Assembly (NCBI GenBank): GCA_038874135.1
Contig: JAVZCZ010000001.1
Coordinates: forward strand, 751,219 to 815,218
DNA length: 64,000 bases
DNA from: Candidatus Woesearchaeota archaeon
GTDB lineage: Archaea; Nanobdellota; Nanobdellia; Woesearchaeales; 0-14-0-80-44-23
Direction: 5' to 3'
Part shown: piece after piece, positions 1-52,245 of the stretch
Layout of the letters: the number at the start of each line of letters is the position of its first letter
Position numbering within the stretch: the first letter of the stretch is position 1
Made by a program: the position numbers and the translations under genes
The notes under the pieces: generated by a model
What the model was told of the DNA's origin: nothing
Databases searched by the model: none
The model's input: only the letters and a program-made list of their open reading frames with translations

Positions 1-3000
1 TGCTCATACTCTTCTAACTACTTGGAAGTGCAGTGCTCAGATGAGCAAGCCTATGGCAATGCCTCTACATATTTTTACATATTTGAACTTCCATCCGTGA
101 ATACTTACGAACCGAACGATTCTGCAATAATAAACTCTTCCTCATTCCAATTTGAATATGAAATTCTGCCAGAATCGTCAGCATACTTAGTTAAAAACTG
201 CGCCCTTATATTAGATGGAACTTCCTGTAACTCTACTGATTTACCTCACAATGGAACAAACAGCATAAGCTGCCCGTTCAGTGAAGGATCTCACACTTGG
301 AAGGTGCTCTGCACACTCATAGGCTCAGGCCAGGAAACTATTGAAAGTCAAGAAAGAGGATTCTTTGCAGATTATAGTCCTCCAAATATAAACCTAATTA
401 ATCCAAACCAGCCCGCTTACAATTCAGATGTTCCCATTGAATTTAACATTACAGACTCTGCCTCTTCATCATTCAATTGCACAATATCCGGCATTCCAGC
501 ACCATTCAATCTCAGCTCACTTGTTTCCTACTCTTCTAAGCTTAACCTTCCAGTAGGAAAATATAATCTAACGATTTCCTGCTCAGATGCTGCTGGAAAT
601 TCTGCATATACTTGGCAAGAATTTGAACGAATAAATCTTTCAGTTTCAACTGACAAAAAATATTATATTCCTATGGAAAATGTGTTTATAACGCTGAACG
701 CTCCTCCTTCCCAAACAAATATCTCAGTTTCAAAAGGCAATTTCACACTGTCCAAAACAACAACTCCACCATATCCAATAGTCTACATCTTCACATCCTC
801 AAACGAGCCTGGAGATTACCTGGTGCAGGCATTTACAACATATAACAACATAACATTCACTGCCAACACCTCATTCTCAGTCAATATAACTAGAAACCTT
901 ACACTTTCAATATCAGCTAACACCACAACAGCTGAGCCCGGAGTAAGAATCCTATTCTATTCTAATGTTTCAGGAAACCTCACTCCTGTTACATACTTGT
1001 GGGACTTTAATAATGATAACCTTCCCGAAAGCAGCCTTCCAAATACCGAATACTCTTTCTCACAGCCTGGAAGATACCTCGTAACTTTAAAAGTGAACGA
1101 CTCATATTCCTCCGCCTCAGCTTCAATAAATATAACAGTGCTCTCCAGAGCAAATTTGAGCATTACAGTTCTTAACAGGCTTGGAGAACCTCTCGCTGGA
1201 GCAAACATCACGCTAGGCAACACATCTGCCATAACCAACTCCTCTGGAGCAGCAGTCATGCAGAATCTGCTTCAAGGCACATACCCTATAAATGTAACAG
1301 CCACAAATTACAATTCGTATTTCAACACAGTGGACATTTCCTCTAACAAAAACATAACAATATATCTACAAGAGCTCACAGAAGAGCCGGAAATCCTAAT
1401 AACAGAACCAACAGATGGTGCTACAATAACATCCCTTCCAATTACAATAAGGTTCAAAGCAAATTTATCATATCCTACAAACTGCACACTATACAAAAAT
1501 GAACAACAATCCTGGTGGGAACAGCTTTCTCAGATGGCTGTTACAAACAACACTGAAAATACCTTGTCAGTAGCCAATCTCACGGACGGGCAAGTTCTTC
1601 TAAGAATCGTATGCACAGATGTATTCGGAAACAGTGGCACCCAACAGATTTCCCTTAACATCAGCACACTACCAAAAGAGCCGCAATATCCAGAACTAGA
1701 CCAGGCAGAAGAAGAGCTCTACACAAAACAGGAATACTACAACAGCATAGGACCAGCACAGCTTGAAGCAGCTCAACTATTAGGTATACCTGATATGCTC
1801 TCAGATGCTCAGAACCGATTAACACTCGCCAGGAGGGATCTCTCAGACCTCTCATATTCAAAAAAGAGCCCGGAGGAAAAAGAAGCAAGAAAGAGTGAAA
1901 TAATATCTGACGCCGTTTCACGAATCAATGCAATTCCAGATTCAATACAGGTGCTATCTTCTTATGAACAGATACACTATCCAACTCAGCAAGAGCTGGA
2001 AAAGGTGGCAGCTCCCTTCATCTCAGCTAATTCTCTGAAGATAGACCAGCGGACATTCCTAAGAGCAAACTCTCCACTTATTGAGCTAATAACAATAAAT
2101 ACAAAAGCGTTTTCAATAGTGCTAAATTATAACGGGGAGAGCCGAGAAGTGTCTGTAATAAAGCACTCTGTACAGCTCAGCCAACAGCTTAACGAATCAG
2201 CAATCTCAAACCTGATGTTAATACTCAATATTCCAAAACAGATAGCTGACTCAGCAGCAGGAATCACATTTATGGACAGGTATGGACAAAAAGTAGTCAA
2301 AGATGATCCAATCTTTTCACTTCCTGTTACAAGCGAAATAGTTTACCAAATAAACAAGAGCATTGATGCAAATTCTGCTTCTGAGATATCACTCCTCTTA
2401 GTAAGCAAGAGTGCTTCAGTTTCAATACCAGGCATATCGGGACTGGCAGTTTCACAGACAAGGTATTCCATCTGGCCTTTCAATCTCATTGGAGGAAAAA
2501 TTGGCTCCAGTTTAGCTATTCAAATAGTAATACTTGTAGTGCTTCTTACCATATACTTAGTATACACCCTTCAGCCGGAAATAATAAGCAGATCAGCAGA
2601 TGCACTAGGAAATCATATCAAAAATCTCAGACCTCGCTCGGAAAATAGGATGAAGCAAATAGTCCATGCTGAGAAGTCAATTCCCACAACACTACAGAAC
2701 AATTTAGCTAGCATGCCGCAGCAACAAACATACTCACCCATTCAACAACAAGTAGTTCCCATAGGGCCTGGAATGCAGCATTCTTACATTGCTTACAGAA
2801 TGCAACGGGCTCTTCAGTTGGCAGAGCAGAACAACTATGAGGAAGCTTCAGCCGCATATTATGAATTAAAATTCCTTTATAACACGCTCAGCTCTCACGA
2901 AAAATCCCTACTTTATCCGCAATTATTAAACCTGGGACACAAGCTTAACATTTCCTATATCAGACAGTTAGTTTCAGAAGCAAAGTTAAAGGTTAATTCA

Positions 3001-3222
3001 GACTACCAAGAAGCCCTTGAACTTTATGATAAGATCTCCAAGGCATACTCACTGCTCCCTACAGAGTTCAAGTATGCAGTGTTCTCTGAATGTCTTGAGC
3101 TTCTAAACATTCTTGAAAGGGCAAGAAAAAACCAGAACAACTCTGAAAATCAAGCAGTAACCTTCAAAAAGAAAAAAAAGAGGTGCAGGTCAAAATCACA
3201 CGCCAAGGCGAGAAGGGCATAA
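1..3222 (+). CDS. Large glycoprotein-like surface protein with its N-terminus off-window. It has PKD-like and carboxypeptidase-regulatory-like Ig-fold modules, a C-terminal TM anchor and a helical cytoplasmic tail.
   Basis: ORF track gives 22..3222. The same frame is stop-free back to nt 1, so the true start lies upstream. 'YLWDFNNDN...GRYLVTLKVND' is PKD-like. 'ITVLNRLGEPLAGANITLGNTSAITNSSG' is CarboxypepD_reg-like. Module ends such as 'YNLTISCSDAAGNSAYT' recur. A hydrophobic stretch LAIQIVILVVLLTIYLVYTL lies near the C-terminus. N-x-S/T sequons are very dense. Confidence 0.75.
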   Translation, partial: CSYSSNYLEVQCSDEQAYGNASTYFYIFELPSVNTYEPNDSAIINSSSFQFEYEILPESSAYLVKNCALILDGTSCNSTDLPHNGTNSISCPFSEGSHTWKVLCTLIGSGQETIESQERGFFADYSPPNINLINPNQPAYNSDVPIEFNITDSASSSFNCTISGIPAPFNLSSLVSYSSKLNLPVGKYNLTISCSDAAGNSAYTWQEFERINLSVSTDKKYYIPMENVFITLNAPPSQTNISVSKGNFTLSKTTTPPYPIVYIFTSSNEPGDYLVQAFTTYNNITFTANTSFSVNITRNLTLSISANTTTAEPGVRILFYSNVSGNLTPVTYLWDFNNDNLPESSLPNTEYSFSQPGRYLVTLKVNDSYSSASASINITVLSRANLSITVLNRLGEPLAGANITLGNTSAITNSSGAAVMQNLLQGTYPINVTATNYNSYFNTVDISSNKNITIYLQELTEEPEILITEPTDGATITSLPITIRFKANLSYPTNCTLYKNEQQSWWEQLSQMAVTNNTENTLSVANLTDGQVLLRIVCTDVFGNSGTQQISLNISTLPKEPQYPELDQAEEELYTKQEYYNSIGPAQLEAAQLLGIPDMLSDAQNRLTLARRDLSDLSYSKKSPEEKEARKSEIISDAVSRINAIPDSIQVLSSYEQIHYPTQQELEKVAAPFISANSLKIDQRTFLRANSPLIELITINTKAFSIVLNYNGESREVSVIKHSVQLSQQLNESAISNLMLILNIPKQIADSAAGITFMDRYGQKVVKDDPIFSLPVTSEIVYQINKSIDANSASEISLLLVSKSASVSIPGISGLAVSQTRYSIWPFNLIGGKIGSSLAIQIVILVVLLTIYLVYTLQPEIISRSADALGNHIKNLRPRSENRMKQIVHAEKSIPTTLQNNLASMPQQQTYSPIQQQVVPIGPGMQHSYIAYRMQRALQLAEQNNYEEASAAYYELKFLYNTLSSHEKSLLYPQLLNLGHKLNISYIRQLVSEAKLKVNSDYQEALELYDKISKAYSLLPTEFKYAVFSECLELLNILERARKNQNNSENQAVTFKKKKKRCRSKSHAKARRA

Positions 3223-5564
3223 TTTGTGCTCTGCTTTTAGGAATTGTAACTATAATCTTAGGTAGTTATGCCTGCGCTTTGGAATTTTCACCATCTTCAA
3301 TTAACGAAGTGCTTTCTATTAACAAGTTTGTTCAGAAAAACATAACTTTGAAGAATGAACTCTCCTATCCGGTAAGGATTGCTCTGGTGCCCTCTTCTAA
3401 CATTAGCGATTTATTAGACATCACTCCAAATTCTATTGAAATCGGGGCAAGAGAGTCAAAGAATGTTCTGGTTACAATATACGGAAATGTTGATCCTATA
3501 AAATTTATTAATCGCTCGTATTACATCTTTAATGGCTTCATAAAGCTTGAAGGAGCTAACGCTCAAATACCTACGGACTTGATGGTCACTAATGGAACAA
3601 TAAACCTGCCCAGCAGCATGGTGCTTTCAGCATCGGCAGGTAAGGATTATTTCACTAAATCAGAAAATCTCTCTTTTATAATTGTTGTAACGAATCTTAT
3701 GACAGGCTCAAAACCAAATGTTACTCTTTTCTATTATTTCCTAATTGATAAAAACTCAGAAATTCCCGTTGGGAACGATTCCTTCATAATTACTACTTCA
3801 AAATCAGTTGTAAAGGAATTCATACCAATGTCTTCAATACCTGATGGCACCTATACTTTCAGGGTTGTAATGTCTTATGCAGATAAGAAGAGTGTTGCTG
3901 ATGTGCCCTTCAGGATATCAACCCCATTTATATTCAGAACATTCTTAGGTATAGCTGTATGGCAGTATATACTCGGAGTGATTGCCTTAATAATAATTGG
4001 CTTGTTAGTATACTGGCGAAGGAAGCGTGTTTTGGCTTCTCGTCGTTATGGTGTGAGTGTGGATTTGCGTAGTTTTCCTTCTTCTGGTAGGCTTGTGCGT
4101 TTGGGTAAGTTGGCGGAGTATGGGCGTGATTTTTGGTTTGATTTGGATGGTTTGACTACGCATTGTATTGTGGCTGGTGCTACTGGTGGTGGTAAGACTG
4201 TTGCTGCTCAGGTTTTGGTGGAGGAGGCTTTGAAGGCTGGTGTGGCTGTGGTTGTTTTTGATCCTACGGCTCAGTGGAGTGGTTTTTTGAGGCCTTGTTC
4301 TGATAAGGGTATGTTGTCTTTGTATTCGGGTTTTGGGTTGCGTCGTTCTGATGCTCGGGGTTTTCCGGGTAATGTGAGGCAGGTGTTGGATGCTCGTGAG
4401 GTTTTTGATGTTAGGCGTTTTATGCGTCCTGGTGAGATTGAGATTTTGAGTTTGAATAGGTTGAGGCCTGAGGAGATTGATGTTTTTGTGGCTAATACTG
4501 TTAGGAGCGTGTTTGATGCGGGTTTGGATGAGTGTCGTGAGTTGAGGTTGTTGTTGGTTTATGATGAGGTGCATAGGTTGTTGCCGCGTTTTGGCGGTTC
4601 TGGTGAGGGTTTTGTGCAGATTGAGAGGGCTTGTCGTGAGTTTAGGAAGTGGGGTGTTGGTGTTGTTTTGATTAGTCAGGTTTTGTCTGATTTTGTTGGT
4701 GAGATTAAGGCTAATATTAATACTGAGGTTCAGATGAGGACTCGTGATGAGGGCGATTTGGAGCGTATTCGTGTTAAGTATGGTGATGCTTATCTTAGGG
4801 GTCTTGTGAGGGCTAGTGTGGGTACTGGTATGTTTGAGAATCCCGGTTATAATGGTGGTCGTCCTTTTTTTGTTAGTTTTAGGCCTTTGTTGCATAGTGT
4901 GGTTCGTTTGTCTGATGCCGAGTTGGGTGAGTATAATAGGTTGAATGGGGTGTTGGATGATTTGGAGTTTTGGATTGGCGAGTTGGAGCGTTTGGGTGTG
5001 GACGTGTTTGATTTGAGGTTGGAGTTGAAGTTGGCTTGGGATAAGTTGAGGGTTGGGGGGTTTGGGATGGTGGATGTTTATGTTGAGGGTTTGAGGCCTC
5101 GCGTGTTGGGCGAGTTTGAGCGTTTGGGGAGGCCTGTTCCTAAGCGTGAGGTTAAACGCCTTTCAGATGAGGAGCTTGCAAAGCAGAGGAAGCTGGCTGA
5201 GCAGAGCCGTGCAGAGTTTATAAAAAAGATGGGCATTAAAGAGCAGCAGTCCAAGCAGGAGGAAAAGAAGGAAGAACACATCGTGCAGCCTTACACTTTT
5301 GATAATGGTGCAATGGTTTCGGAGCTTAAGGAGTTGAAAGACGCTATAGAACCTATGAGTGCTGACATCCTCAGAAGCGCGTTGAGTGGAAACAATAAGC
5401 TTTCTGATTGGATAAAGAATGAGCTTAAGAATGAGCAGCTTGCCTCTGAAATTGAGAAGGCGAAGACGAAAAAGGAGATTCTTGATGCAATAACTGCTGA
5501 ACTTGATAAAGCAGAAAAGAGCAGTGAGAAATCTGGAACTGATAAAGGCCAAAAGTCTAAGTAG
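3183..5564 (+). CDS. Membrane-anchored HerA/FtsK-superfamily (DUF87-like) P-loop ATPase, paralog 1. Order: signal-anchor, ~250-aa extracellular domain, TM, cytoplasmic ATPase, Lys/Glu-rich tail with a conserved C-terminal module.
   Basis: Walker A AGATGGGKT is at nt 4173-4199 and Walker B LLLVYDEVH at 4548-4574. 'REFRKWGVGVVLISQ' is a HerA/DUF87-type motif. The TM GVIALIIIGLLVYW is followed by RRKR (positive-inside). The track start is GTG 3183, which overlaps the upstream ORF by 40 nt, so the exact start is uncertain. Confidence 0.8.
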   Translation: MQVKITRQGEKGIICALLLGIVTIILGSYACALEFSPSSINEVLSINKFVQKNITLKNELSYPVRIALVPSSNISDLLDITPNSIEIGARESKNVLVTIYGNVDPIKFINRSYYIFNGFIKLEGANAQIPTDLMVTNGTINLPSSMVLSASAGKDYFTKSENLSFIIVVTNLMTGSKPNVTLFYYFLIDKNSEIPVGNDSFIITTSKSVVKEFIPMSSIPDGTYTFRVVMSYADKKSVADVPFRISTPFIFRTFLGIAVWQYILGVIALIIIGLLVYWRRKRVLASRRYGVSVDLRSFPSSGRLVRLGKLAEYGRDFWFDLDGLTTHCIVAGATGGGKTVAAQVLVEEALKAGVAVVVFDPTAQWSGFLRPCSDKGMLSLYSGFGLRRSDARGFPGNVRQVLDAREVFDVRRFMRPGEIEILSLNRLRPEEIDVFVANTVRSVFDAGLDECRELRLLLVYDEVHRLLPRFGGSGEGFVQIERACREFRKWGVGVVLISQVLSDFVGEIKANINTEVQMRTRDEGDLERIRVKYGDAYLRGLVRASVGTGMFENPGYNGGRPFFVSFRPLLHSVVRLSDAELGEYNRLNGVLDDLEFWIGELERLGVDVFDLRLELKLAWDKLRVGGFGMVDVYVEGLRPRVLGEFERLGRPVPKREVKRLSDEELAKQRKLAEQSRAEFIKKMGIKEQQSKQEEKKEEHIVQPYTFDNGAMVSELKELKDAIEPMSADILRSALSGNNKLSDWIKNELKNEQLASEIEKAKTKKEILDAITAELDKAEKSSEKSGTDKGQKSK
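4021..5176 (+). repeat. ATPase cassette copy 1. This 1156-bp block is identical to 8201-9356, and its coding strand is G+T-rich.
   Basis: Base-by-base reading matches 8201-9356 at an offset of 4180. The sense translation and the long antisense ORF translations (4005..4895 vs 8191..9075) are identical in the ORF track. Line 4081-4140 contains 6 A and 6 C out of 60 nt. Flanking line 3901-3960 contains 17 A and 13 C. Confidence 0.95.
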
Positions 5565-5674
5565 ATTTCTTATACCTTAACCAACAATGTGGTATTTATA
5601 AACTTAGATTACTTAGTATGCATTTATACACATACACTATTTGTGTCACATTTAAAAATTAGTATATAAAATGA

Positions 5675-5688
5675 AAATATTTATATAT
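5675..5688 (+). promoter_or_regulatory. Putative BRE/TATA promoter element AAATATTTATATAT upstream of the RHH-led surface operon.
   Basis: It lies in an AT-rich 175-bp intergenic region with a TTTATATA core ~65 nt upstream of ATG 5753. The identical 14-mer recurs at 27328-27341 upstream of another secreted-protein gene. Confidence 0.4.
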
Positions 5689-5752
5689 CAATATACATAT
5701 TTAGTATGAGTTTGTATTCAAAGACCTTGAAAAGGCTTTTTTGGGACCCGAA

Positions 5753-5941
5753 ATGCGCAGTACGCCTGAGAAGCATGGCTCAAAGAGAATAACCATAACC
5801 ATAAGCAAGGACCTTTTAGACTTCTTAGATTTAGCTGTGGAGAACAGGCTGTTCGCAAGCAGAAGTCATGCACTTGAAGTCTTAGTAAGGCGCAGGATGG
5901 AGTTTGAGAATGAAGCAAAGAATTACAATTACATTGGATAG
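5753..5941 (+). CDS. Ribbon-helix-helix (CopG/Arc-MetJ-like) DNA-binding protein 1.
   Basis: 'KRITITISKDLLDFLDLAVENRLFASRSHALEVLV' has the beta-strand plus two-helix RHH pattern. The ORF track begins at TTG 5741, and the first ATG is 5753. Confidence 0.7.
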   Translation: MRSTPEKHGSKRITITISKDLLDFLDLAVENRLFASRSHALEVLVRRRMEFENEAKNYNYIG

Positions 5942-6101
5942 TGAATGCCTGGCATGGGTTGATGAAAAGGTAAAGAATAGAAGCTTTGCTAATCGGAGCC
6001 ACGGCTTTGAATTTTTAATAGCGCGATTCAAGGAGCGCCAAGAACTTCAGAATCTTCTCAACTCGCGAAATTCAAAGGAGGAAGACTTAAAACATGAATA
6101 A
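5910..6101 (+). CDS. Ribbon-helix-helix (CopG-like) DNA-binding protein 2, a tandem paralog.
   Basis: 'QRITITLDSECLAWVDEKVKNRSFANRSHGFEFLI' is paralogous to the upstream RHH. The track start is TTG 5904 and the first ATG is 5910. It overlaps RHH1 by ~32 nt and overlaps the start of the 1180-aa gene by 8 nt. Confidence 0.7.
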   Translation: MKQRITITLDSECLAWVDEKVKNRSFANRSHGFEFLIARFKERQELQNLLNSRNSKEEDLKHE

Positions 6102-9100
6102 AAATCCTACCTTCAGGATACTGGAACGGGACAGGCAGCTGGAAAGGAGAAGACAGCAGCTGTACATCCTATTAGGCATCTTAGGAGTTTTACTAGCAGT
6201 TGGTGTTATACTTCTGATAAGAATGTTCATAGGATACGCAGTTCTGGAAAGCAGGGCTGGCACAATAACACAACTTAATATACAGCTCAGATACTCAACA
6301 CACATATGGGCTGGATTTTACGGATTGGCATTCCGCGTTCCCGGATACACTGAGCAGCAGTCTGCAGTTGCAGTCGGCGGCACAGTCTTCTTGCAGCACT
6401 TAGTATTTGACTGCTTAAAAACTACAGACGGCAACATTCCTGAGGTATATGCCAGTACTTCAAGAAACATTGACTGGAATTCACTCCAGCCAGCAACTCC
6501 AGACTTGATTGACAGCTACCTACAAGTAGATCCTTCAGATATAACCTCTGCTTCAAACACATTTACAGAAACAATGTCAATACTCTTAGGAGACAGAGAA
6601 ATCACAAATATTGCTGCAACGCACACCAAAAAGTTCGGAGTTCCGGACAGCACGGACTTTGATATAGGCTTCTTAAAAGATTCGTTGGGAAATCTCGTAT
6701 TTGTAACCCATGTAACTCCAACTTATACCAAAGGATTTAACAACCAAACTATAAACTACCAAATGCTCCTTCCAGTACAAGCAGGAACAGCTCCAGTATA
6801 CTACTTCTTCTCAGACCCATATGACGAGTGCCAAGCAGGGCTTGAAGCTCTCAAAAATGCTACCATATTCGGAAGAGCCATAGACAATGCAACAGGCCTT
6901 CCACTTGAAAATGTTACAGTTAATCTTCATACTGCTACAGTTCTTACCAACTCTACAGGAGACTATTACATAGCAATATTTAACGGCACCTACACCCTAG
7001 TAGCTTTCAAGCCGGGATATTACACCTTTGTTGCAACAAACATCACTCTCCCAGCTGACAATCTGTCTACACCTCAATCTGAAAATATTGTCGAATTTAA
7101 TATATCCCTCATTCCCAACCCTGGAAACCCAACTGGACTCGGAAACCTAACTGGCACTGTAACTGATAAAGACTTCGGAATACCCCTCTATAATGTAACA
7201 GTGTATGTAAACGGCAGAATCGCTAAGACAAACATTACAGGCCAATACCTACTTGAACTGCCAGCAGGAAATCATTCTCTTATAGCAATGAAGGAAAACT
7301 ACAGAACATACTACACTCCAAATGTAACTATACTGCCTGGAAACACCACTGAATTTAATTTCAGTATGGAATATGCAGAGCCAGAAATAAAAGAAACTCC
7401 TGGATATCCGCTAAATACCTTCGTTTCCAACCTACTCAAACAGGCAGTGCAGAGGCCTCAAATAATACTCACTCATAAGATTGATACAAAAGAGATATTT
7501 GAAACATTAAAAGTTGGCTCATATGTCCAGCGCTCATTCAATATAACGAGTTACAGGCCTGCCGAGTCCAAAGTTGAGTTTGAAGTCATAGGAAGTGCTG
7601 CACAGCTGGTAAAGGTTGACAAGAGCAGCTCAATAATACCTCCAAGGGGTGCAGAAAACTTCACCCTTACAATTCTAGCCAATGTGCCTCCAGGCATATA
7701 TACCGGAACATTCCTAATCAAAGGAGACCTTGAAGACAGAATCCCGATAAAGATAGTTGTTTATGAGAAGGATAGACTTCCAATAGAGGCTCTTCTCCTA
7801 GAAGTAGTGCCAATAAAAAAGATAATCAGCCCAGGAGAACTATTTGAATATAAGGTCAGCATGACAAACCTGCTGAGGGACACCCCATACAACATCACCC
7901 TTTCATACAATATCACCTCGCGCTCTTCAAATCTTACTATTCCCGTTGAAGAAGAGACGAGACTCTTGGAAACTCAGCTTTCCTACCTTAAGTATTACAA
8001 GCTTCCCAAAGACCTGCCAGAAGGAGAATACTTCCTTGAAACTAGAGCGGAATTCTTAGAACTATCAACAAACACAAAATCGCTATTCATAGTTAAGAAG
8101 CCAATTTACATGTATGCATTATTCGGAATACTTCCCCTCTGGCAGCTTTTCATAATAATAGTTTTCACCTCCCTCATGACCTTCGCAGGATTAATGTATC
8201 GGAAGCGTGTTTTGGCTTCTCGTCGTTATGGTGTGAGTGTGGATTTGCGTAGTTTTCCTTCTTCTGGTAGGCTTGTGCGTTTGGGTAAGTTGGCGGAGTA
8301 TGGGCGTGATTTTTGGTTTGATTTGGATGGTTTGACTACGCATTGTATTGTGGCTGGTGCTACTGGTGGTGGTAAGACTGTTGCTGCTCAGGTTTTGGTG
8401 GAGGAGGCTTTGAAGGCTGGTGTGGCTGTGGTTGTTTTTGATCCTACGGCTCAGTGGAGTGGTTTTTTGAGGCCTTGTTCTGATAAGGGTATGTTGTCTT
8501 TGTATTCGGGTTTTGGGTTGCGTCGTTCTGATGCTCGGGGTTTTCCGGGTAATGTGAGGCAGGTGTTGGATGCTCGTGAGGTTTTTGATGTTAGGCGTTT
8601 TATGCGTCCTGGTGAGATTGAGATTTTGAGTTTGAATAGGTTGAGGCCTGAGGAGATTGATGTTTTTGTGGCTAATACTGTTAGGAGCGTGTTTGATGCG
8701 GGTTTGGATGAGTGTCGTGAGTTGAGGTTGTTGTTGGTTTATGATGAGGTGCATAGGTTGTTGCCGCGTTTTGGCGGTTCTGGTGAGGGTTTTGTGCAGA
8801 TTGAGAGGGCTTGTCGTGAGTTTAGGAAGTGGGGTGTTGGTGTTGTTTTGATTAGTCAGGTTTTGTCTGATTTTGTTGGTGAGATTAAGGCTAATATTAA
8901 TACTGAGGTTCAGATGAGGACTCGTGATGAGGGCGATTTGGAGCGTATTCGTGTTAAGTATGGTGATGCTTATCTTAGGGGTCTTGTGAGGGCTAGTGTG
9001 GGTACTGGTATGTTTGAGAATCCCGGTTATAATGGTGGTCGTCCTTTTTTTGTTAGTTTTAGGCCTTTGTTGCATAGTGTGGTTCGTTTGTCTGATGCCG

Positions 9101-9636
9101 AGTTGGGTGAGTATAATAGGTTGAATGGGGTGTTGGATGATTTGGAGTTTTGGATTGGCGAGTTGGAGCGTTTGGGTGTGGACGTGTTTGATTTGAGGTT
9201 GGAGTTGAAGTTGGCTTGGGATAAGTTGAGGGTTGGGGGGTTTGGGATGGTGGATGTTTATGTTGAGGGTTTGAGGCCTCGCGTGTTGGGCGAGTTTGAG
9301 CGTTTGGGGAGGCCTGTTCCTAAGCGTGAGGTTAAACGCCTTTCAGATGAGGAGCTGCAGAAGGAAAAGGAGATTGCTATGCAGGAACATGAGAAAGCAA
9401 AACAGCAGGAAGCAGGACAAACTTCACAAAATTCAGATTCCAAGACAGAAACTTCCCAAATTCAAAACACAAAAGTTGAAGAGCAGCCCAGCCAAAATGA
9501 AAAGGCCGAGAACCAAGAGAATGCAAAATCCTCAAATGAAAATAAAATTAAAAGAGTAAGGGAGGGTAAAAAGCAGAGGATGAGGAAATCAGCAAGTTCG
9601 GAAAAAAATAATAAAAAAAGAGGTGCTAAAAAATGA
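6094..9636 (+). CDS. Membrane-anchored HerA/FtsK-superfamily ATPase, paralog 2. Order: N-terminal TM, ~650-aa extracellular region with CarboxypepD_reg-like and Ig-like modules, TM, the identical ATPase domain, acidic/basic low-complexity tail.
   Basis: N-terminal TM is LYILLGILGVLLAVGVILLI. 'GRAIDNATGLPLENVTVNL...GYYTF' and 'GTVTDKDFGIPLYNVTVYVNG...ENYRTY' are carboxypeptidase-regulatory-like. The second TM is LWQLFIIIVFTSLMTFAGLMY followed by RKR. The ATPase domain is identical to the one in 3183..5564. Confidence 0.8.
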   Translation: MNKNPTFRILERDRQLERRRQQLYILLGILGVLLAVGVILLIRMFIGYAVLESRAGTITQLNIQLRYSTHIWAGFYGLAFRVPGYTEQQSAVAVGGTVFLQHLVFDCLKTTDGNIPEVYASTSRNIDWNSLQPATPDLIDSYLQVDPSDITSASNTFTETMSILLGDREITNIAATHTKKFGVPDSTDFDIGFLKDSLGNLVFVTHVTPTYTKGFNNQTINYQMLLPVQAGTAPVYYFFSDPYDECQAGLEALKNATIFGRAIDNATGLPLENVTVNLHTATVLTNSTGDYYIAIFNGTYTLVAFKPGYYTFVATNITLPADNLSTPQSENIVEFNISLIPNPGNPTGLGNLTGTVTDKDFGIPLYNVTVYVNGRIAKTNITGQYLLELPAGNHSLIAMKENYRTYYTPNVTILPGNTTEFNFSMEYAEPEIKETPGYPLNTFVSNLLKQAVQRPQIILTHKIDTKEIFETLKVGSYVQRSFNITSYRPAESKVEFEVIGSAAQLVKVDKSSSIIPPRGAENFTLTILANVPPGIYTGTFLIKGDLEDRIPIKIVVYEKDRLPIEALLLEVVPIKKIISPGELFEYKVSMTNLLRDTPYNITLSYNITSRSSNLTIPVEEETRLLETQLSYLKYYKLPKDLPEGEYFLETRAEFLELSTNTKSLFIVKKPIYMYALFGILPLWQLFIIIVFTSLMTFAGLMYRKRVLASRRYGVSVDLRSFPSSGRLVRLGKLAEYGRDFWFDLDGLTTHCIVAGATGGGKTVAAQVLVEEALKAGVAVVVFDPTAQWSGFLRPCSDKGMLSLYSGFGLRRSDARGFPGNVRQVLDAREVFDVRRFMRPGEIEILSLNRLRPEEIDVFVANTVRSVFDAGLDECRELRLLLVYDEVHRLLPRFGGSGEGFVQIERACREFRKWGVGVVLISQVLSDFVGEIKANINTEVQMRTRDEGDLERIRVKYGDAYLRGLVRASVGTGMFENPGYNGGRPFFVSFRPLLHSVVRLSDAELGEYNRLNGVLDDLEFWIGELERLGVDVFDLRLELKLAWDKLRVGGFGMVDVYVEGLRPRVLGEFERLGRPVPKREVKRLSDEELQKEKEIAMQEHEKAKQQEAGQTSQNSDSKTETSQIQNTKVEEQPSQNEKAENQENAKSSNENKIKRVREGKKQRMRKSASSEKNNKKRGAKK
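8201..9356 (+). repeat. ATPase cassette copy 2, identical to 4021-5176.
   Basis: Evidence is the same as for copy 1. It is in the same codon phase in its host ORF. Identity ends at ...gatgaggagct, followed by g at 9357 versus t at 5177. Confidence 0.95.
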
Positions 9637-10457
9637 AGTCAAAAAAATCAGTTAAGTATAGAGCGAGAGTTCACAATAAGGCTAACTCAAGCAAGAAAGA
9701 TTTGAGAAAAAAGAAGGTTCGCATTGAGAGAAAAAATAGCACTAAAACAATTAGTAAAGAAACATCACCTAAAAAATCCAAAGCTTACTTAAAAAAGCGA
9801 TTTGGCAAGATTGATAACAGAGTTATTAAAAATAAAAATAATAAAGTAAAACCAGGAGCTTTAAAGCACAGAAAAAAAGAGAAGAAGCAGAATGTTCAAA
9901 AAAGAAGAAAAGCAATGCAAAAAAAGCCAGCGCCTGAAAACGCAGCCGCAGCAACCAACCAAGTACAGACAAATACGACTTCAACAGCTCAGCAGGCAAA
10001 TTCTCAAATTGAAACACATTCAGATGTGGAAGCGCTTCAAAAAGAATACTCAGATATCAACAGCTATCTGGTTCAGCGAAGAAAAGCGGGAGTTGACACC
10101 TTCATACAGGAACTGAAACTTTTTTCAATACCGTCAAAAATTCAGCTTTTAAAGGCAGAATACTCAAAAGATTATGCTGACAAGATTAGAGTTCAACTTA
10201 ATGAGATTAGAGAAGAGTTAGAAAAAGCAGAACCTCAACCGACCCCCCTTGACCTTCCTAAAGTTCAGCCGAACCAGCCGAATCCATTCTCAGAGCAACA
10301 GCTCACAAGTCAGAATAATAATCATCCCTTAACGCAGGATGCAGAAAACTATTCAAAAGAACTAGCTGAGAAGCGCCTTTCAAATAAAATAAAAAATTCT
10401 CTGAGAAATGCTTCCAAAAAAGTTATGTCCATATTCAAAAAAGGAGGTGGAAATTAG
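9633..10457 (+). CDS. Highly basic Lys-rich protein of unknown function.
   Basis: Long ORF with an ATGA overlap onto the upstream stop and GAGGTG 7 nt upstream of the ATG. The K/R-rich N-terminal half has no recognisable motif. Confidence 0.55.
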   Translation: MKSKKSVKYRARVHNKANSSKKDLRKKKVRIERKNSTKTISKETSPKKSKAYLKKRFGKIDNRVIKNKNNKVKPGALKHRKKEKKQNVQKRRKAMQKKPAPENAAAATNQVQTNTTSTAQQANSQIETHSDVEALQKEYSDINSYLVQRRKAGVDTFIQELKLFSIPSKIQLLKAEYSKDYADKIRVQLNEIREELEKAEPQPTPLDLPKVQPNQPNPFSEQQLTSQNNNHPLTQDAENYSKELAEKRLSNKIKNSLRNASKKVMSIFKKGGGN

Positions 10458-11615
10458 ATGTTCAACCTTTTCAAACGGAAAAACTCTGAAGAAGTTCCCA
10501 ATCAACAATCAGCTAACGAAGATCTGACAGCTCCAGCACAAACCCAGCAAACTGCTACTACGCAAGGACAGGAAAACCTCGCTGCAGAATTAATGAAGAT
10601 TAAGGCAGAAGTGGAAGCATTTTCAGATGTAAGAAAAGCCACAAATGAGAAACTTACAAGACTAAGCGAGCAGATTGGAGAGCTAAGAGCAATGATTGCA
10701 GACAGAGACAAGGTGATGAATCAGATAGAGGTTAAAGCTACAAAGGCAGCAGATCTCGTAGCCACAGTTAAGCCTGAAGAGCAGATGGTAGAAATAAAGC
10801 GTCAGGATGCAAAACTTGAAGCGTTTAAAGCATCTCTGGAGAGCAATGAACTTTTGATGAAGAGAGTTTTAGACGAACTTAAAGAGATGAGAACAAAGAT
10901 AGCTTCCTTCCGCGGAATTGAGGAACTAATCAACCTTAACAATGAAGTAAAATCTGAAATAATTGAAATAAAAAAGGTTGAAGCAAACATACAAAAGCAT
11001 GCAGACAAGGTAGAAACGATATTTGCAGAGGTTCAGAAAAGATTCGTTGACTTTACAAAAATTGATGATAGGATAGCATCCAACACGAAGCAAATAGCAG
11101 AGCTATCAAAGAACTTGGACGGAGTGAAGGCAACTGCCTCGGCAGCAGCCACAAAAAAGAGTGTAGATGAACTAACTTCCAAATTCTTAGAAATGAAAGA
11201 CCAACTCTCAGAACTGGTTTCAACAATAAACAAGCGCCTCTCCTTAGTGGAGAAGAACAATTCTGCAGCATTTGAAGCTTTTGAAAAAGCGATAATGCAC
11301 AAGTTTAAACTTTCAAAAGAGGAAGTAGCTGTATTTAAAGAGCAAGTACAGCAGAATCAGCAAGCCCAGCCAACTCAGCAAATATCCCAGCCGCAGGATG
11401 TCTCTCAAAAGAGCAATACTCAAGAGCAAAATCTTCAGACCAGTGAAGCACCCGAAGCTCTACCACAGCCGCAAGCCTCTCAGCAGGTTCAGCAGCCGCA
11501 GAGTGAGCCAAATGAGCAAGACTCAAAAAAGCCTGACAGCAGCATTCAGAAAGAGATAAGAGAAGCAGCCAAGTTTGCTAAAAGGATAAAAAGCAAAAAA
11601 AGAAAGAAGAAATGA
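10458..11615 (+). CDS. Coiled-coil protein with Gln/Pro-rich termini, unknown function.
   Basis: The ATG follows the upstream TAG directly, and GGAGGTGG lies upstream. Heptad-like E/K/L-rich sequence covers most of its length. The C-terminal tail is basic (KRIKSKKRKKK). Confidence 0.55.
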   Translation: MFNLFKRKNSEEVPNQQSANEDLTAPAQTQQTATTQGQENLAAELMKIKAEVEAFSDVRKATNEKLTRLSEQIGELRAMIADRDKVMNQIEVKATKAADLVATVKPEEQMVEIKRQDAKLEAFKASLESNELLMKRVLDELKEMRTKIASFRGIEELINLNNEVKSEIIEIKKVEANIQKHADKVETIFAEVQKRFVDFTKIDDRIASNTKQIAELSKNLDGVKATASAAATKKSVDELTSKFLEMKDQLSELVSTINKRLSLVEKNNSAAFEAFEKAIMHKFKLSKEEVAVFKEQVQQNQQAQPTQQISQPQDVSQKSNTQEQNLQTSEAPEALPQPQASQQVQQPQSEPNEQDSKKPDSSIQKEIREAAKFAKRIKSKKRKKK

Positions 11616-14600
11616 ATAGCTCCAAATTTTTCAAACTAATAATTTTAGGGTTTATAATAGTGGTAGGTCTCCTAAGCCAGTCAAAAGCAGACAGCATCCA
11701 AGCAGTATATGGCAATACTCAACTCATACTCACAGACAAGCCGCAGTACACTTTGGGAGAAAGTGTAAAGATAAACATACTAATCCCAACACAACTGCTT
11801 TCAGGAATGAATGTTGAAATAGATACCCCTGCTAGCAGATACCAACTTCTTGATTCAAATCTTTCAGAAGTATACTTCACTCCACAGCAAGAGGGAAACT
11901 ATACTATTAAAATATCTTCAGCAGCTGGGAATTTAATATCATCAACTTCTTTTTTAGTACTAAGAAAATCTGAAGTTGAAATTCCCTCATCAGATAGCAC
12001 CAGCCCCAAATTGTCTGCAAAAAACTGGAAGGGAAATTATCAAAAAATACTAAGACAGGAATACCTACCTGCCAACAAGAAGCTTTCAATAGAATTCTCA
12101 GAACTTTCAATACAGAAGATTGATTTTTACAATGTTTCAAATCCGAATGGAGAACTGAAAATAGAAGATGTGCCTCTATCTTATGTTGAAAACTTTTCAG
12201 GAAGAGCAGCGCGCTCATTTGCAATAGACCCAACTTTATTAGAATTTACTTATGCTGAAATTTACTTTACTGCAACTGCCAACGAGCTGTGGAAGTGCCG
12301 CGAATACGACTTCTCAACTAGAAGCTGCGCGGGAAGATATGTAAAAATAATGGACACCATTCCGGGCAGGCAGTATATCTTACACCTCACCAAAGAGGAT
12401 CCTCTCTACACAGAAGTATGGAACAATATAACCTGCACCTGCCAGAATACAGGCCCAAATAACGGCTGGGCATACTGCGAGGTATTCTGTCCGGTCAACA
12501 TTCCAATACCAACAGACGCTTTAGATGGATTCATTCAGATACTAGGCTATAATGTCACCATCACTACATCCTACCCGGCAGGCGGGTACATCACGCCTAA
12601 TTCTGGAATGCACTACGGCTTCTTTGATAGGGACCAGCTGAAAAGCAACGGAAACGAATCCCTAATAGGCTATGTGGCTTATGATGGCCCCGGAACAACC
12701 ACTCAGCTCATATACAACACCAGCATGGCACCGTCTGGAGCATATGCATTTAACAGGGCAAACTGCCCGACTTGGACCTCAGGATACTGCACCTGGTATG
12801 TATTTCTCAACTCAACTGCAAAGAGCAGCAAGGTTAAAAGGCCTGTGACTGTTAATATAACTCTTAATAGCATAAACTGGACTTGGAATTATACAACCCC
12901 TGCGCCTTCAAACATTACAATAAACCTTACAAGTCCAGCAGACAATACTGCCCTCGGATTTAGAAATGTGAATTTTTCCTATATTCCCATTTCAAGTTCT
13001 CCAGTTTCAAACTGCAGCCTTTTTATAAACATTACAGGTAGTTGGAATGCAGTTGCCACAAGCTACTCAATACAAAATAATTCTGTCAACAGTATAAATT
13101 ATACTCTTTCTAACGATGGCGAATACCTCTGGAATATCAGGTGTTATGCTGGAGACATCAGCAGTTTTGCACTATACAACAGAACTCTAATAGTTGATAC
13201 CGCACCCCCTTCAGTCACACTTCTTTCTCCTAACAATAACTCATTTTCTAACACATCTATAATCTCTTTCATTTACAATGTGAGTGACAACTTTAACATT
13301 GCTAACTGCTCATTAATACTGGACAATGTTCTAGTTGCAACTTCATACGCAGTTACTAAATATGTCCCGCAGAATATTACCTACGCGTTATCTAATGGCG
13401 TCCACAACTGGAGCATAACTTGTTTTGACTTTGCAGGCAATTTTAACATTTCCGAAAGTAGGATCATAAATATATCCGCAGTACCTACCATCTGGGACAG
13501 AAGGTGGTATGAAACTTCAACATCAGATTATACCTCTACAGCAAACATTTCTCTCGCAAATTTAAGGGACTCAACAGAAAATTCCATATCCGTTTCAGTT
13601 CCAGTTTCAACATCTTACACCCTTGTAGATGCGATTTCTCCATACATTGGAAGCAACGGGGCATTCGTTCCCAAAGGCACAAATGTATCTTTCAGCGGAG
13701 AATTCTCTACCAGCCCAAATGCAAAGGGAGTTATAAGCTGGTTCTTATACCAGACTGAGGGTTCAACAAAAAACCTTCTCTGTAATTACGGAAATGGCGG
13801 CTCGCTAGGCGCACCCATCTCATCAACAACAACTGCAAGCTGCACTATACAAAATGACACTCTAATGCTCCCAACAAATAGATTACAACTTATTATAATC
13901 TACTATAACAATTTCAAAAATTTAGTGTCTGTAACCCACTATTGGGATGGCACTAGGCTCTCGTTCGTTGAATTTTCAAACTTTACTACCTTAGGAACAT
14001 TAAGCGTTGACCTCTCCTATCCAGACACGGATATAACAGTGGGCCAGAACGAACTGTTCAATATGAGCTGCACAGTTAACTGCTCAGGAGGAAGCTGTCT
14101 TAACACACTCGTCTATGCACAGTATAACACGAGCTCAACGGCATTCACCAACATAGGAAGCTCCGGAAATCTCATTCTTAACACTGGAGAGACAAATCCC
14201 CATTCTCTCGGGAATATCAACCAGAGCTACACTACAACATTCTTAATAAAAGGAAACCTTGCATCAACAAACAACATAAGATGCGTAGCAGTTTCAAACT
14301 ATTCAAACGCTACAGGCCAGATTATAAGAAGGGTAGTTGTGGGGGACACTACGCCTCCAACAGTAAGTCTTGGAAATCCAGCAAACTTTTCTTGGCTGAA
14401 GAGTAAAACAGTAACAATCTATTACACGCCCTCAGACAACAGCGGAATTACTAACTGTTCAATATACTTGAATGATATTTTGAATTATACTCTTAATTCA
14501 GTTCCGAACGGGATTGAGCAGAACTTCACATTCCATAATCTTTCAGACGGACTTTACAATTGGACTGTAGCATGTACTGACAATTCGGCACTAACTACCA

Positions 14601-17600
14601 GGGCAGCTGAAAAATGGTTCTATATAGACACACAGAATCCCTCAGTAGAATTGCACCAGCCGGAAAACTTCATAGTTCTAGGAAGCAGCCTTGTGTTGTT
14701 CAACTTCACTGCATATGACGAAATGGCTTTCAACCTATCATGTAACCTGACAGCTGATAATATAATCAGAATTTCCGGCATAAACTCTCTAAACAGTACA
14801 CCTACAATAGTTAATTACACCCTTTCTATGGGGCAGCACTACTGGAATGTCACCTGTAGAGACCTTGCAGGAAACATTAACACGAGCGAGACTAGAACAT
14901 TTAATATAACAAACACTCCTCCTGAAGTTACCCTCATCTCCCCTCCTAACAACTACTGGGATAGAATAGGCAACATAACATTCATATTTAATGCCACAGA
15001 CACAGGCCTAATTTCAAACTGCTCACTAATAATAAATGGCCAGCTGAACCAGACTAAAAATTCAACTTTCTTAACTAACGGCATAAACAACTTTACTATT
15101 CTAAATATGGAATCGGGAGTTTATCTTTGGGAAGTAAACTGTACTGATGAGGGAAACCTGAGCACAATAGCAGGACCTTTCACGCTAAATGTTGATAAGA
15201 GCGTACCTTCTGTTCAGCTCGTATTCCCATCAAACTACTACAACTCCTCAGCTTCCTCTATTGTTCTGCAATTCATAACTACAGATGCTCATTCAGCAAA
15301 CCTCTCCTGCAACTTAACAATTGATGGCATTCTAAATTCAACAGACATAATAGCCCAAAATAATAGTTTAGTCTCACAGCCCATAACCTTCTATGATGGA
15401 ATTCACAATTGGAGTGTCTCCTGCTCTGATCTTGCTGGAAACCTGAATTCTACAAACACCTGGTATTTCAACATTTCAGAAAAACCTTCAGTATCGCTAA
15501 GCAGTCCTGCACCTAACGCCTGGACTAATGGTAATGTCACTTTCACATTTACAGCGTCTGACAATGACGGGCTTTACAACTGCTCTTTATTAATAAATGG
15601 AGCAGTCTATCAAACAAAGAATTCATCGCAACTTACAAATGGCGGACAGAACAACTTCACTGTAACAAATTTGCTTGAAGGAATAAACCAGCAGTGGACA
15701 GTAATCTGCTTTGATTTGGGAATATACAAGAACTTCTACTCACCATCTACAAGAATATTCCATGTGGATAAAACGCCTCCAGCAATAACTCTTAACTACC
15801 CTGCTGATTCAGCTCAGATAAAACAGAAGAATGTCAGCTTTAATTTCAGCGCCTCAGATAACTTCGCTTCTAACCTCTATTGCAACCTGTCCATAAACGG
15901 CCAGATTAACACTTCTGAAATAGCTGTTCAGTCAGGAAGTTCAGTTATCGTGAATGTTTCAGGATTTCCTAACGGTTTATACTACTGGAATGTCTCCTGT
16001 AGGGATTATGCTTACAATGTGAACTGGAGCGAGACAAATTCTTTTAATGTTTCAGTTCCTCCAGAGGTGTTTTTAGAATACCCCCTTGAAGGGCAGTGGG
16101 ACAATTCTGAGAATGTAACATTTTATTACTTAGTAACATCAAATGCAGAGTTACAGTCATGTTCTCTCATAATTAACGGGCAGTTAAATCAGACTGACAA
16201 TTCTCCAGTTAGTTCAGCATACAACAATTTTACCATTTTCCTAATGCCTGAAGGCTATTACACTTGGATGGTAAACTGCACTGATTCATATTGGCTAACC
16301 GGTTCTTCAAATTTGAGGAACCTCACCATTGACAGACAAGCTCCTTGGATAGTGCTAAATTCTCCTTCTAATTCTTCAATTGTTGACTCTAACTATGTAA
16401 CATTTAACTGGACTGCTTTTGACATGATGGCAGATAATATAAGCTGTGACCTATACGTAGATGATTATTTAAGAGAATCAGAAATATATTCTAAAAATGG
16501 AACACCTACCACTAGAACATACATATACTCTGACGGCACCTACTATTGGAATGTTTCATGTCGCGACCCTGCCTATAACATTAATTGGAGCCAAACTTAT
16601 AATTTCACTGTTGAGGCACCTCCAAATGTCACTCTCATAAGTCCTTCTAACTATAACTGGAGCACCGCTTATAGTATAACTTTTGCTTACTTACCTCAAG
16701 ACCCAATAGGGATAAGACAATGCACACTCTACTTTGATGGAAGCCCTAATCAGACTGATTACGACATAGAAGCTAACCAGCTGAATTATTTCACTATAAA
16801 TCCTATAAGTGAGGGAGTTCATACTTGGAGTGTTAACTGCACTGATTCAGATTGGAATACTTACATGCCGCCAGCCTTTACTCTTTATATTGACCGCACC
16901 CCGCCAACAATTGTTATAGAATCTCCTGTCAACCTGTCTGTTTTTTCAATTCCAGATGTAACCTTCAACTTTACTGCGATTGACATGTTATCAGATAATA
17001 TTTCGTGCAAAATAACTATAAATGGTAATTTGAACAGAACTATAACAGTACAGAATGATACTCCTTACAATTTCACGATTGTAAAAATGTCAGATAATAT
17101 CTATTATTGGAATGTGTCCTGCTCAGATTTAGCCGGAAATGCAAATGCTAGCAACACCATGCAGTTTACTGTAAGCGCTATTCCTTCAATAATTCCCATA
17201 TCGCCTGCCAACTTAAGTTGGAGTGAAGTATCACAGATAACATTTTACTTTAATGCAACCGACAACGATGGGCTTTCTAATTGCACTTTACTAATTAATG
17301 GTGTAGCAAATCAGACAAAATCTTCAGGTTTAATAAATGGTGGCATAAACAATATCACTTCTACTCTTACTGAAGGAGAATATGATTGGAGTATCGCTTG
17401 TACAGATTCGGGCATATTCTATAATCTCAACTTGTCCGCTCCTCAAAAGATTTTTGTTGATCTAAATTCCCCGCTGATTGTTCTTTACGCCCCTCTCAGC
17501 GGTAGCATTACTGAAAATAATTCTCCAGTTCTAAATTTTACTGCTTCAGACACGATGTACCCAATTATGTATTGCAACATTACTCTTGACGGAAAATTGA

Positions 17601-52138: not shown

Positions 52139-52245
52139 GCCTCTGTAGCTCAGTGGTAGAGCGCCACCTTGGTATATTCCGCAGTCAACCCAGGCTTGGA
52201 ATTGCAGAAAGGTGGAGGTCGCGAGTTCAATCCTCGCCAGAGGCT
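52139..52245 (+). tRNA. tRNA-Thr (GGU) with a 35-nt intron (52175-52209) at the canonical 37/38 position.
   Basis: The acceptor is GCCUCUG/CAGAGGC, the discriminator is U and the D-arm is GCUCAGUGGUAGAGC. The anticodon stem CCACC...GGUGG is separated by 42 nt, that is a 7-nt loop UUGGUAA plus 35 nt. The T-arm is GCGAGUUCAAUCCUCGC. I did not fully verify a bulge-helix-bulge (BHB) splicing motif by eye. Confidence 0.7.

Follow-up and report, generated by a model that had tools for sequence, protein, structure and literature searches.

Why should one domain-sized block of DNA occur twice, without a mismatch, inside two archaeal genes of ordinary composition, and why should its codons end almost without exception in G or T? 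The question is raised by a stretch of 64,000 nucleotides (nt) from a Candidatus Woesearchaeota archaeon (assembly GCA_038874135.1, contig JAVZCZ010000001.1, positions 751,219 to 815,218 of the forward strand), referred to here as the window, in which two membrane-protein genes share a HerA-type ATPase domain. The exact duplication of 1156 bp proposed in an initial annotation is borne out by alignment: positions 4021-5176 and 8201-9356 agree at 1156 of 1156 nt with 0 mismatches, and no more than a few bases beyond either edge identity is down to about 25%. Two open reading frames (ORFs) carry the block in frame, ORF 3183-5564 (793 amino acids, aa) and ORF 6094-9636 (1180 aa). The pair and its host genes comprise the following features:

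3183-5564, plus strand: host gene 1, encoding a signal/ectodomain, a transmembrane (TM) helix, the ATPase domain and a Lys/Glu-rich tail (793 aa), with an identical gene call in GCA_038731275.1
6094-9636, plus strand: host gene 2, encoding a CarboxypepD_reg-type ectodomain, a TM helix, the same ATPase domain and a tail (1180 aa)
4021-5176, plus strand: identical tract copy 1, the HerA-type ATPase domain of the short membrane protein (exact identity, Pfam DUF87/HerA_C, 4d2i)
8201-9356, plus strand: identical tract copy 2, in the long membrane protein (exact identity; polymorphisms at 8718 and 8877 correspond to 4538 and 4697 of copy 1)
4020-5147, plus strand: G/T-ending codon tract of copy 1, 376 codons, with the same at 8200-9327
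5148-5176, plus strand (also 9328-9356): 3′ margin, identical between the copies and with ordinary codons, where identity overshoots the G/T tract

The block encodes a putative HerA/FtsK-type P-loop ATPase, as originally assigned, and the assignment is supported by Walker A (GATGGGKT) and Walker B (LLVYDEVH) motifs, Pfam matches to DUF87 (2.9e-9) and HerA_C (1.6e-9), and Sulfolobus HerA (4d2i, E = 1.7e-7) as the closest solved structure. In DPANN archaea, 270 homologs of this ATPase were found, the nearest of which (55-64% identical) come from Woese-, Pace- and Nanoarchaeota. The two host proteins had been called otherwise unrelated, which applies to their ectodomains only; their TM segments, with a common W-Q start, and their Lys/Glu-rich tails look paralogous.

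Within the 376 codons from 4020 to 5147 the third positions are T 212, G 155, C 9 and A 0, and the exact listing of nine C-ending codons (GGC four times, AGC, CCC, GCC, GAC and CGC) was reproduced. Leucine is written TTG 43 times and CTT 3 times; arginine is dominated by CGT (22) and AGG (21), with one CGG, one CGC and no AGA, and the excess of Arg over Lys, first put at about 4:1, counts out at 46:12. A general use of G/T-ending codons, the condition under which this would have been ordinary bias, was not seen: such endings make up 48.6% of the 18,702 window codons outside the blocks, which serve as baseline, the most extreme run of 50 codons there reaches 0.80, and the chance of finding 0 A-endings in 376 codons is about 1e-61. 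The 1156-nt block is composed of T 441, G 429, A 171 and C 115. When observed A+C is compared with the minimum over all synonymous codings of the same protein, the tract holds 274 against a theoretical minimum of 262, an excess of 0.03 per codon, compared with 0.55-0.71 per codon in the flanking genes.

The change at the tract edges is abrupt. As first reported, positions 4081-4140 hold 6 A and 6 C and positions 3901-3960 hold 17 A and 13 C, and keto skew, defined as (G+T-A-C)/n, is +0.5 only inside the tracts and -0.035 ± 0.12 elsewhere in the same genes. The bias had been read as filling the whole duplicated block; it is saturated from 4020 to 5147, but the final ~29 nt of the identical block carry ordinary codons (AAA, CGC, TCA). 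It starts and stops inside genes within about one codon, favours T over C by a ratio from about 25:1 to absolute, and avoids host-preferred codons. The marks of translational codon bias, namely whole-gene extent and no distinction between C and T read by one tRNA, were not found, nor were those of transcriptional or replicational strand asymmetry, as the skew is sub-genic and not moderate, though its direction, G+T on the coding strand, is the same. Directly after the G/T tract the keto skew is about -0.3, a very sharp switch of sign, and positions 5177-5564 and 9357-9636, the stretch reaching on into the following gene as far as about 10100, encode A/C-rich tails with much Lys, Glu and Gln. 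On the sense strand, T homopolymers of at least five are found at a density of 5.2/kb in 4021-5176 and 7.6/kb in 19969-20624 (see below), compared with 1.2/kb in the rest of the cluster, and runs of three or more G at 21.6/kb in the tracts against 5.6/kb.

The bias had also been described as confined to one block, and this did not hold. A scan of the window for keto skew, suggested at the outset, revealed a second exact pair among segments at +0.4 to +0.5, and sister assemblies contain a third tract upstream:

19969-20624, plus strand: tract family 2, copy 1, a 656-nt exact repeat inside a 2612-aa surface protein (ORF 18649-26487)
30550-31205, plus strand: tract family 2, copy 2, the same exact repeat inside ORF 30160-32418 (752 aa)
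L025 245-1054 (also L024 1-1120): tract family 3, about 9 kb upstream of window position 1 in sister assemblies (L025 from GCA_038872315.1, L024 from strain GCA_038731275.1)

The family-2 tract encodes approximately four repeat units of 50 aa, with codon endings of T 174, G 41, C 4 and A 0, and its flanks are paralogous, 60-70% identical and of ordinary composition. Querying the protein database with this block returned a single match at 39%; a homolog of the block in one contig is also saturated, its tract starting about 390 nt further upstream than in the window. The third tract comprises about 270 codons, 0 ending in A and about 4 in C. Its start directly adjoins the signal peptide of a secreted, Cys-rich protein, and among the DNA sequences collected L025 245-1054 has no paralogous partner. 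Inside L024 a 127-nt exact direct duplication (657-783 = 884-1010) forms a 227-nt insertion relative to L025 that breaks the reading frame, whether as a structural variant or through misassembly. The same G/T rule governs at least three unrelated protein families of one region and, in the window, every exact repeat is a G/T tract and every G/T tract an exact repeat. A useful internal negative control is provided by ORF 11612-18652 (2346 aa), where diverged repeats of ~560-575 nt at 13404-17170, with 68-nt cores 60-72% identical, are neither homogenised nor skewed.

The tracts are not peculiar to one assembly. When public DNA was scanned with the most conserved ATPase motif written in G/T-ending codons, matches were recovered from JBNAUL010000001.1 (492 kb, Woesearchaeota, two copies), a third metagenome-assembled genome (MAG) and six metagenome contigs. 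In all 12 of the 12 ATPase genes obtained, which represent at least seven Woesearchaeota genomes or contigs, the fraction of G/T endings lies near 0.4, jumps to 0.95 or more across the ATPase domain and then comes down again; in 3 of the 12, the 387 codons include 0 A- or C-endings, and that clade uses essentially one codon per amino acid, with T where possible and otherwise G. Gene order around the tracts is conserved. The ATPase query of the protein database, whose index seemingly lacks proteins of the tract-bearing clade itself, returned only ordinary homologs at no more than 64% identity; three such homologs from outside the clade have ordinary codon usage, and the shift in R/K and V/I is present in 0 of the 120 homologs checked. 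The possibility of a chimeric or collapsed assembly, raised at the outset, is countered by the two-copy layout, which recurs in JAVYQW010000001.1 (495 kb), JBNAUL010000001.1 (492 kb) and Ga0272448_1001657 and is partly resolved in L010/L013 (W denotes the window here and below, and J, M and the L-numbered sequences the clade relatives compared), by sister-strain polymorphisms carried in both copies, and by the repeat being the exact point at which independent short-read assemblies stop. Because the tracts are natural and conserved across the clade, synthetic DNA, an assembly artefact and a one-off event are excluded.

The copies evolve in concert. Within each genome they are identical (W, 1156/1156 nt; J, 1240 nt uninterrupted; M, 245/245 available codons), and between clades the tracts are 77-91% identical. 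The window itself is 99.8-99.99% identical to NCBI MAG assemblies including JAVYQW010000001.1. Compared with GCA_038731275.1 across 183-11636, 16 single-nucleotide polymorphisms (SNPs), 14 of them transitions, lie outside the tracts and two sites lie within them, both T/G and each present in both copies (4538/8718 and 4697/8877), giving 18 SNP sites or 20 mismatches when both tract copies are counted; compared with GCA_038872315.1, 1 mismatch was found in 8.1 kb. These slight differences from the sister assemblies indicate several near-clonal strains in public data. Similarity within genomes exceeds that between genomes, the tracts are discrete within diverged flanks, and a new substitution turns up in both copies alike: these are gene-conversion tracts, kept identical by paralogs of one conserved surface/secretion gene cluster of a Woesearchaeota (DPANN) lineage. 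Several independent assemblies end in or just after tracts (L016 1-410, L017, L018, L020 at window position ~8322, L012, L013 and M), as short-read DPANN assemblies fragment where the tracts form exact repeats.

Substitutions inside the tracts follow a pattern of their own. Nucleotide identity there equals or exceeds protein identity, and the usual relation holds in the N-terminal domains of the same genes:

W vs J, tract: aa identity 74%, nt identity 81%
M_2 vs J_2, tract: aa identity 97.2%, nt identity 97.7%
M_2 vs J_2, N-terminal domain: aa identity 89%, nt identity 81%
L005 vs J_1, N-terminal domain: aa identity 84%, nt identity 75%

Nucleotide identity exceeds protein identity because synonymous sites are frozen. 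J_2 and M_2 diverge by 2.3% in the tract and by 19% in the N-terminal part of the same gene. Transitions always swap keto and amino bases, and between these two genes they drop from 11.7% per site in the flank to 0.43% in the tract, about 27-fold lower, whereas exchanges between G and T per keto site are similar (1.4% in the tract, 1.8% in the flank). Of the differences in tracts, 59-68% are exchanges of G with T or of A with C; in the flanks the share is 16-32%. In tracts that are 97-98% identical, synonymous differences are mostly two-nucleotide switches between AGG and CGT, AGT and TCT, or CTT and TTG; between L005 (JAWBOW010000026.1) and L011 (Ga0078972_1032019) there are eight such switches against two single changes, and CGG intermediates are rare. 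The keto/amino pattern is frozen, and changes within each class accumulate at an approximately normal rate. The encoded protein has drifted directionally as well: scored against 30 homologs, Lys was replaced by Arg 13 times and the reverse 0 times, and Ile by Val 11:0, with further shifts from Asn or Lys to Gly, Gln to Glu and Tyr to Phe, so that Lys stands at 3.1% against 10.6% in homologs and Arg at 11.9% against 5.3%. Neither the reading frame nor any invariant catalytic residue has been lost from the ATPase tract. The data show a continuous, tract-specific force on the sense strand that bars or erases changes from keto to amino bases and has left A and C only where they are indispensable.

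The order of events can be approached through the ends of the tracts. Counted relative to the domain start, the boundaries are:

W: paralog identity 1 to 1156, G/T tract 0 to 1133
J: paralog identity -23 to 1216, G/T tract -24 to 1196
L013/L010 (two samples): paralog identity 24 to 1114, G/T tract 6 to 1103
M (3′ end only): paralog identity to 767, G/T tract to 752

In W and J the 5′ ends of identity and of the G/T tract agree within 1 nt, and both boundaries move together between clades (5′, -24 vs 0; 3′, 1103, 1133 and 1196). In W, J and M (the 5′ end of M being unavailable) the G/T tract lies within the identical stretch, which overshoots it at the 3′ end by 15-23 nt of ordinary codons; in L013/L010 the 3′ overshoot is 11 nt, and at the 5′ end the G/T tract begins 18 nt before identity. 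Since identity in W, J and M contains the saturated tract plus an unsaturated 3′ margin, conversion before saturation is favoured, which suggests that conversion came first and saturation second. The 3′ margin is also compatible with priming, or with an invading end, at the 3′ boundary.

The explanation of the tracts that we tentatively prefer, at somewhat less than an even chance, is a strand-polar ratchet of amino-to-keto substitution coupled to gene conversion between paralogs. Conversion would proceed with fixed strand polarity, such that the sense strand serves as the template of error-prone repair synthesis or persists as a long-lived single strand. Changes from amino (A, C) to keto (G, T) bases on the sense strand would escape correction and spread to the other copy, and the reverse changes would be corrected or overwritten. 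The outcome would be one-way: synonymous sites would move to T, or to G where T would alter the amino acid, tolerant residues would drift from Lys to Arg, Ile to Val and Asn or Lys to Gly, and purifying selection would retain A and C only where the protein requires them. More guardedly still, this lineage may possess a previously undescribed strand-polar, keto-biased conversion/repair process, perhaps an outcome of EndoMS/NucS activity, that deterministically turns any segment common to paralogs into an A/C-minimal sequence with nearly one codon per amino acid and redirects protein evolution (Lys to Arg, Ile to Val). EndoMS/NucS cuts G/T, G/G and T/T mismatches, T/C moderately, and A/G, A/A, A/C and C/C hardly (PMC4838380, PMC6159521), and the substitution pattern matches this specificity if the sense strand is the template. 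In that arrangement G-to-T changes would escape more often than T-to-G changes, predicting the order T > G >> A, C, and the observed base order in the tracts matches it. An alternative on the same axis would be damage to an exposed sense strand, with C becoming U, A becoming hypoxanthine and G becoming 8-oxoguanine, and T as the final sink.

Several points weigh against the ratchet. Its causal direction, from conversion to G/T enrichment or the reverse, is read only from the small 3′ overshoot, and both edges are sharp plateaus, for which a defined tract is a better fit than a resection gradient. Strand polarity is assumed; because all five tracts lie on one strand in sense orientation, the polarities of replication, transcription and breaks are inseparable. 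No nucS, deaminase or reverse transcriptase was found among the ORFs scanned, a scope of about 80 kb comprising the window ORFs searched with Pfam/NCBIfam and the precomputed annotation of ~20 kb flanks. CGT is the rarest Arg codon of the host yet common in the tract, and the J clade strongly prefers T over G, neither of which pure deamination accounts for, so that deamination by itself is insufficient. L005 and L011 each have an apparently single ATPase gene, composed of a short-type N-terminus, the tract and a long-type tail and followed directly by homologs of W4/W5, and these apparent single copies are still 100% G/T-ending. A recent deletion between direct repeats or an assembly collapse may explain them; if the single-copy state is real and old, a ratchet that needs two copies is wrong. 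Confidence in the description is high, and in the mechanism moderate to low.

Selection on a property of the nucleic acid is an unlikely alternative, though the least so of those considered. Loss of A and C would create a structure-free, GT-rich strand that aids RecA-family homogenisation of domains needing identity, such as co-assembling ATPase subunits, or the target could be a property of the RNA. The predicted folding of single-stranded DNA (ssDNA) from the tracts, -3 to -6 kcal/mol per 150 nt on both strands against -10 to -12 elsewhere, fits this reading, as does a nearly unstructured antisense RNA (-8 vs -27 to -33). Synonymous sites are more constrained than non-synonymous ones, the same coincidence of identity and G/T tracts is predicted, and RecA is reported to favour TGG/GT-rich ssDNA (PMC3763553). 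However, second-order selection per site is weak and unlikely to bar A from 387 of 387 wobble positions, and the identical yet unsaturated 3′ margin implies conversion with no need for the composition. At the RNA level there is no reason to separate T from C endings, which one tRNA reads, and the oligo-T runs, at 5-8/kb against 1.2/kb elsewhere, are a cost. Oligo-T runs are archaeal terminator signals. A G-quadruplex function was considered separately and rejected: W is enriched in G runs, but in the J clade T is the preferred base and the feature is unconserved.

RNA-mediated copying is improbable. In this reading a deaminated or oxidised stretch of mRNA is reverse-transcribed, or serves as repair template, and is written into all paralogous sites, fixing A-to-G, C-to-T and G-to-T changes on the sense strand, with defined ends and an unmutated 3′ priming margin as in the homing of diversity-generating retroelements (DGRs). 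It has in its favour that the skew is always on the mRNA-like strand and that the tracts are sub-genic with sharp ends and an identical but unmutated 3′ margin of 11-23 nt; relatives of the lineage come from hot-spring-type samples (a Kamchatka MAG), and DPANN archaea are known DGR carriers. The comparison with DGRs of DPANN and candidate phyla radiation (CPR) organisms extends to directed, sub-genic rewriting of surface proteins in the same superphylum. Unlike the tracts, DGRs need a reverse transcriptase and a template repeat, mutate template adenines only and diversify variable regions of about 100 bp; here A and C are both lost, copies are homogenised over 0.65-1.2 kb rather than diversified, no reverse transcriptase was found among the window ORFs or in the ~20 kb flanks, and no template repeat in the window. 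RNA-templated repair is, moreover, unproven in archaea. By tblastn and blastn the window lacks a third copy of ordinary composition, which leaves the RNA without a template copy there; a donor of ordinary composition was rejected on the same result. Pure A-to-G and C-to-T deamination of host-like codons was likewise set aside, as it fails to predict CGT, the near absence of GCG, CCG, ACG, TCG and CGG, and the replacements of Tyr by Phe, Gln by Glu and Ala by Gly.

Import of the tracts from a GT-rich virus or plasmid, for example a single-stranded DNA element that overwrote both paralogs, is very improbable and already largely refuted. Their atypical composition, sharp edges and presence as the same sequence in both paralogs would suit such an origin, and the initial annotation had advised a search for a donor, including among viruses, which produced nothing: the motif coded in NNK codons (K, G or T) gave 0 matches across 2.9 million viral contigs. 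Codon usage and the R/K and V/I ratios are normal in all the nearest ordinary homologs (55-64% identical), the tracts lie in frame and in register with paralogous flanks, their divergence follows host phylogeny with a G/T exchange rate equal to that of the flanks, and at least three unrelated families are affected. Least probable of all, and already refuted, is an artefact, a synthetic insert or an overlapping antisense gene: NNK-like codons do look like designed DNA and codon-aligned minus-strand ORFs are open at 4005-4895, 8191-9075, 19867-20799 and 30460-31284, but at least seven independent genomes or contigs have the tracts, at 77-98% identity and with phylogenetic structure and strain-level SNPs, the antisense translation is of low complexity and less conserved than the sense (80.6% vs 93.8%, W vs L007), and reverse-complemented NNK codons start with A or C and are never stops, so that the antisense frame is open automatically.

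Among known systems, the concerted evolution of paralogs, seen in prokaryotes as gene conversion of tuf and rRNA operons, shares with the tracts within-genome identity, between-genome divergence, sharp edges, diverged flanks and shared derived changes. Known cases have no compositional effect, whereas here one strand is driven to minimal A+C and synonymous sites are held fixed. A survey of such concerted evolution in prokaryotes is available (PMC6053082). GC-biased gene conversion (gBGC) is similar in being a fixation bias linked to heteroduplex repair, limited to conversion tracts and mimicking selection at synonymous sites, but it is strand-symmetric, acts on the GC versus AT axis and is modest, in contrast to a GT versus AC bias that is strand-specific and essentially absolute; strand-symmetric gBGC was rejected as a cause since it predicts a preference for C over T, and the tracts show the reverse. 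Asymmetries arising from single-strand damage or transcription share the axis, the direction and the presumed chemistry of A and C deamination. One mitochondrial strand is G+T-rich, and Green et al. reportedly described in 2003 a G+T excess on the coding strand of mammalian genes. Such asymmetries cover entire replicons or transcription units with an effect of a few to tens of percent, unlike the tracts, which are sub-genic, have edges of ~1 nt, are 97.6-100% complete at the wobble position and are tied to paralog identity.

EndoMS/NucS discriminates keto-keto from amino-amino mismatches and cuts T/C more than A/G, which predicts T over G, but it is known only as a corrector of replication errors, with no described link to conversion bias or codon composition. 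Repeat-induced point mutation (RIP) in fungi also ties duplicated DNA to strand-coordinated, deamination-type change, but it destroys coding capacity, changes only C to T and leaves copies to diverge, whereas in the tracts A is depleted too, the copies are identical, and catalytic residues and frame are intact. Borrelia vls and Neisseria pilE are likewise conversion-active loci with strong strand skew; in vls the skew is one of G/C, and the cassettes become more diverse, not more alike. The view that the block lies beyond ordinary feature classes has held up, with translational bias, strand asymmetry, RIP, DGRs, horizontal gene transfer (HGT), artefact and antisense coding each failing to fit. 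In the literature searched on concerted evolution, gBGC, strand asymmetries, DGRs and NucS, no sub-genic tracts shared by paralogs with G/T-restricted wobble positions are described. No mutational, repair or selective process described so far explains the pattern.

If the coupling of conversion and composition is mechanistic, this would be the strongest localised compositional drive known to us or found in the literature searched, one that overrides codon usage, freezes synonymous sites and measurably changes amino-acid content. Biased gene conversion would gain a strand-specific keto/amino axis, evolution would offer an in vivo record of archaeal non-canonical mismatch repair or of the damage that single strands suffer in recombination, and coding sequence would be subject to a new class of non-adaptive, repair-driven force. 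In such tracts, dN/dS estimates, molecular dating and the detection of HGT would all go astray. The rule of NNK codons with T over G is a simple DNA pattern by which further cases may be mined.

The remaining observations concern the surroundings of the tracts. The window is archaeal chromosome, carrying genes for aIF-2, archaeal topoisomerase I, AMP phosphorylase and a presumed intron-containing tRNA. Just beyond its right edge, in a sister strain, are an Endo_dU gene (PF01949, L022 4762-5352) and a pyrimidine-dimer glycosylase gene (PF03013, L022 9240-9668), so some repair of deaminated bases and of ultraviolet damage is encoded, and a PDDEXK_19-HTH protein lies at L022 391-1272. On the minus strand, 35335-37869 encodes an 844-aa protein with a weak match to DUF5752, the same Pfam family that is precomputed for the ATPase homologs P0059 and P0089. 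A 107-nt tRNA at 52139-52245 (plus strand), found by Rfam and missed by ARAGORN, is presumably an intron-containing archaeal tRNA and adjoins tRNA-Leu(TAA) and tRNA-Val(GAC).

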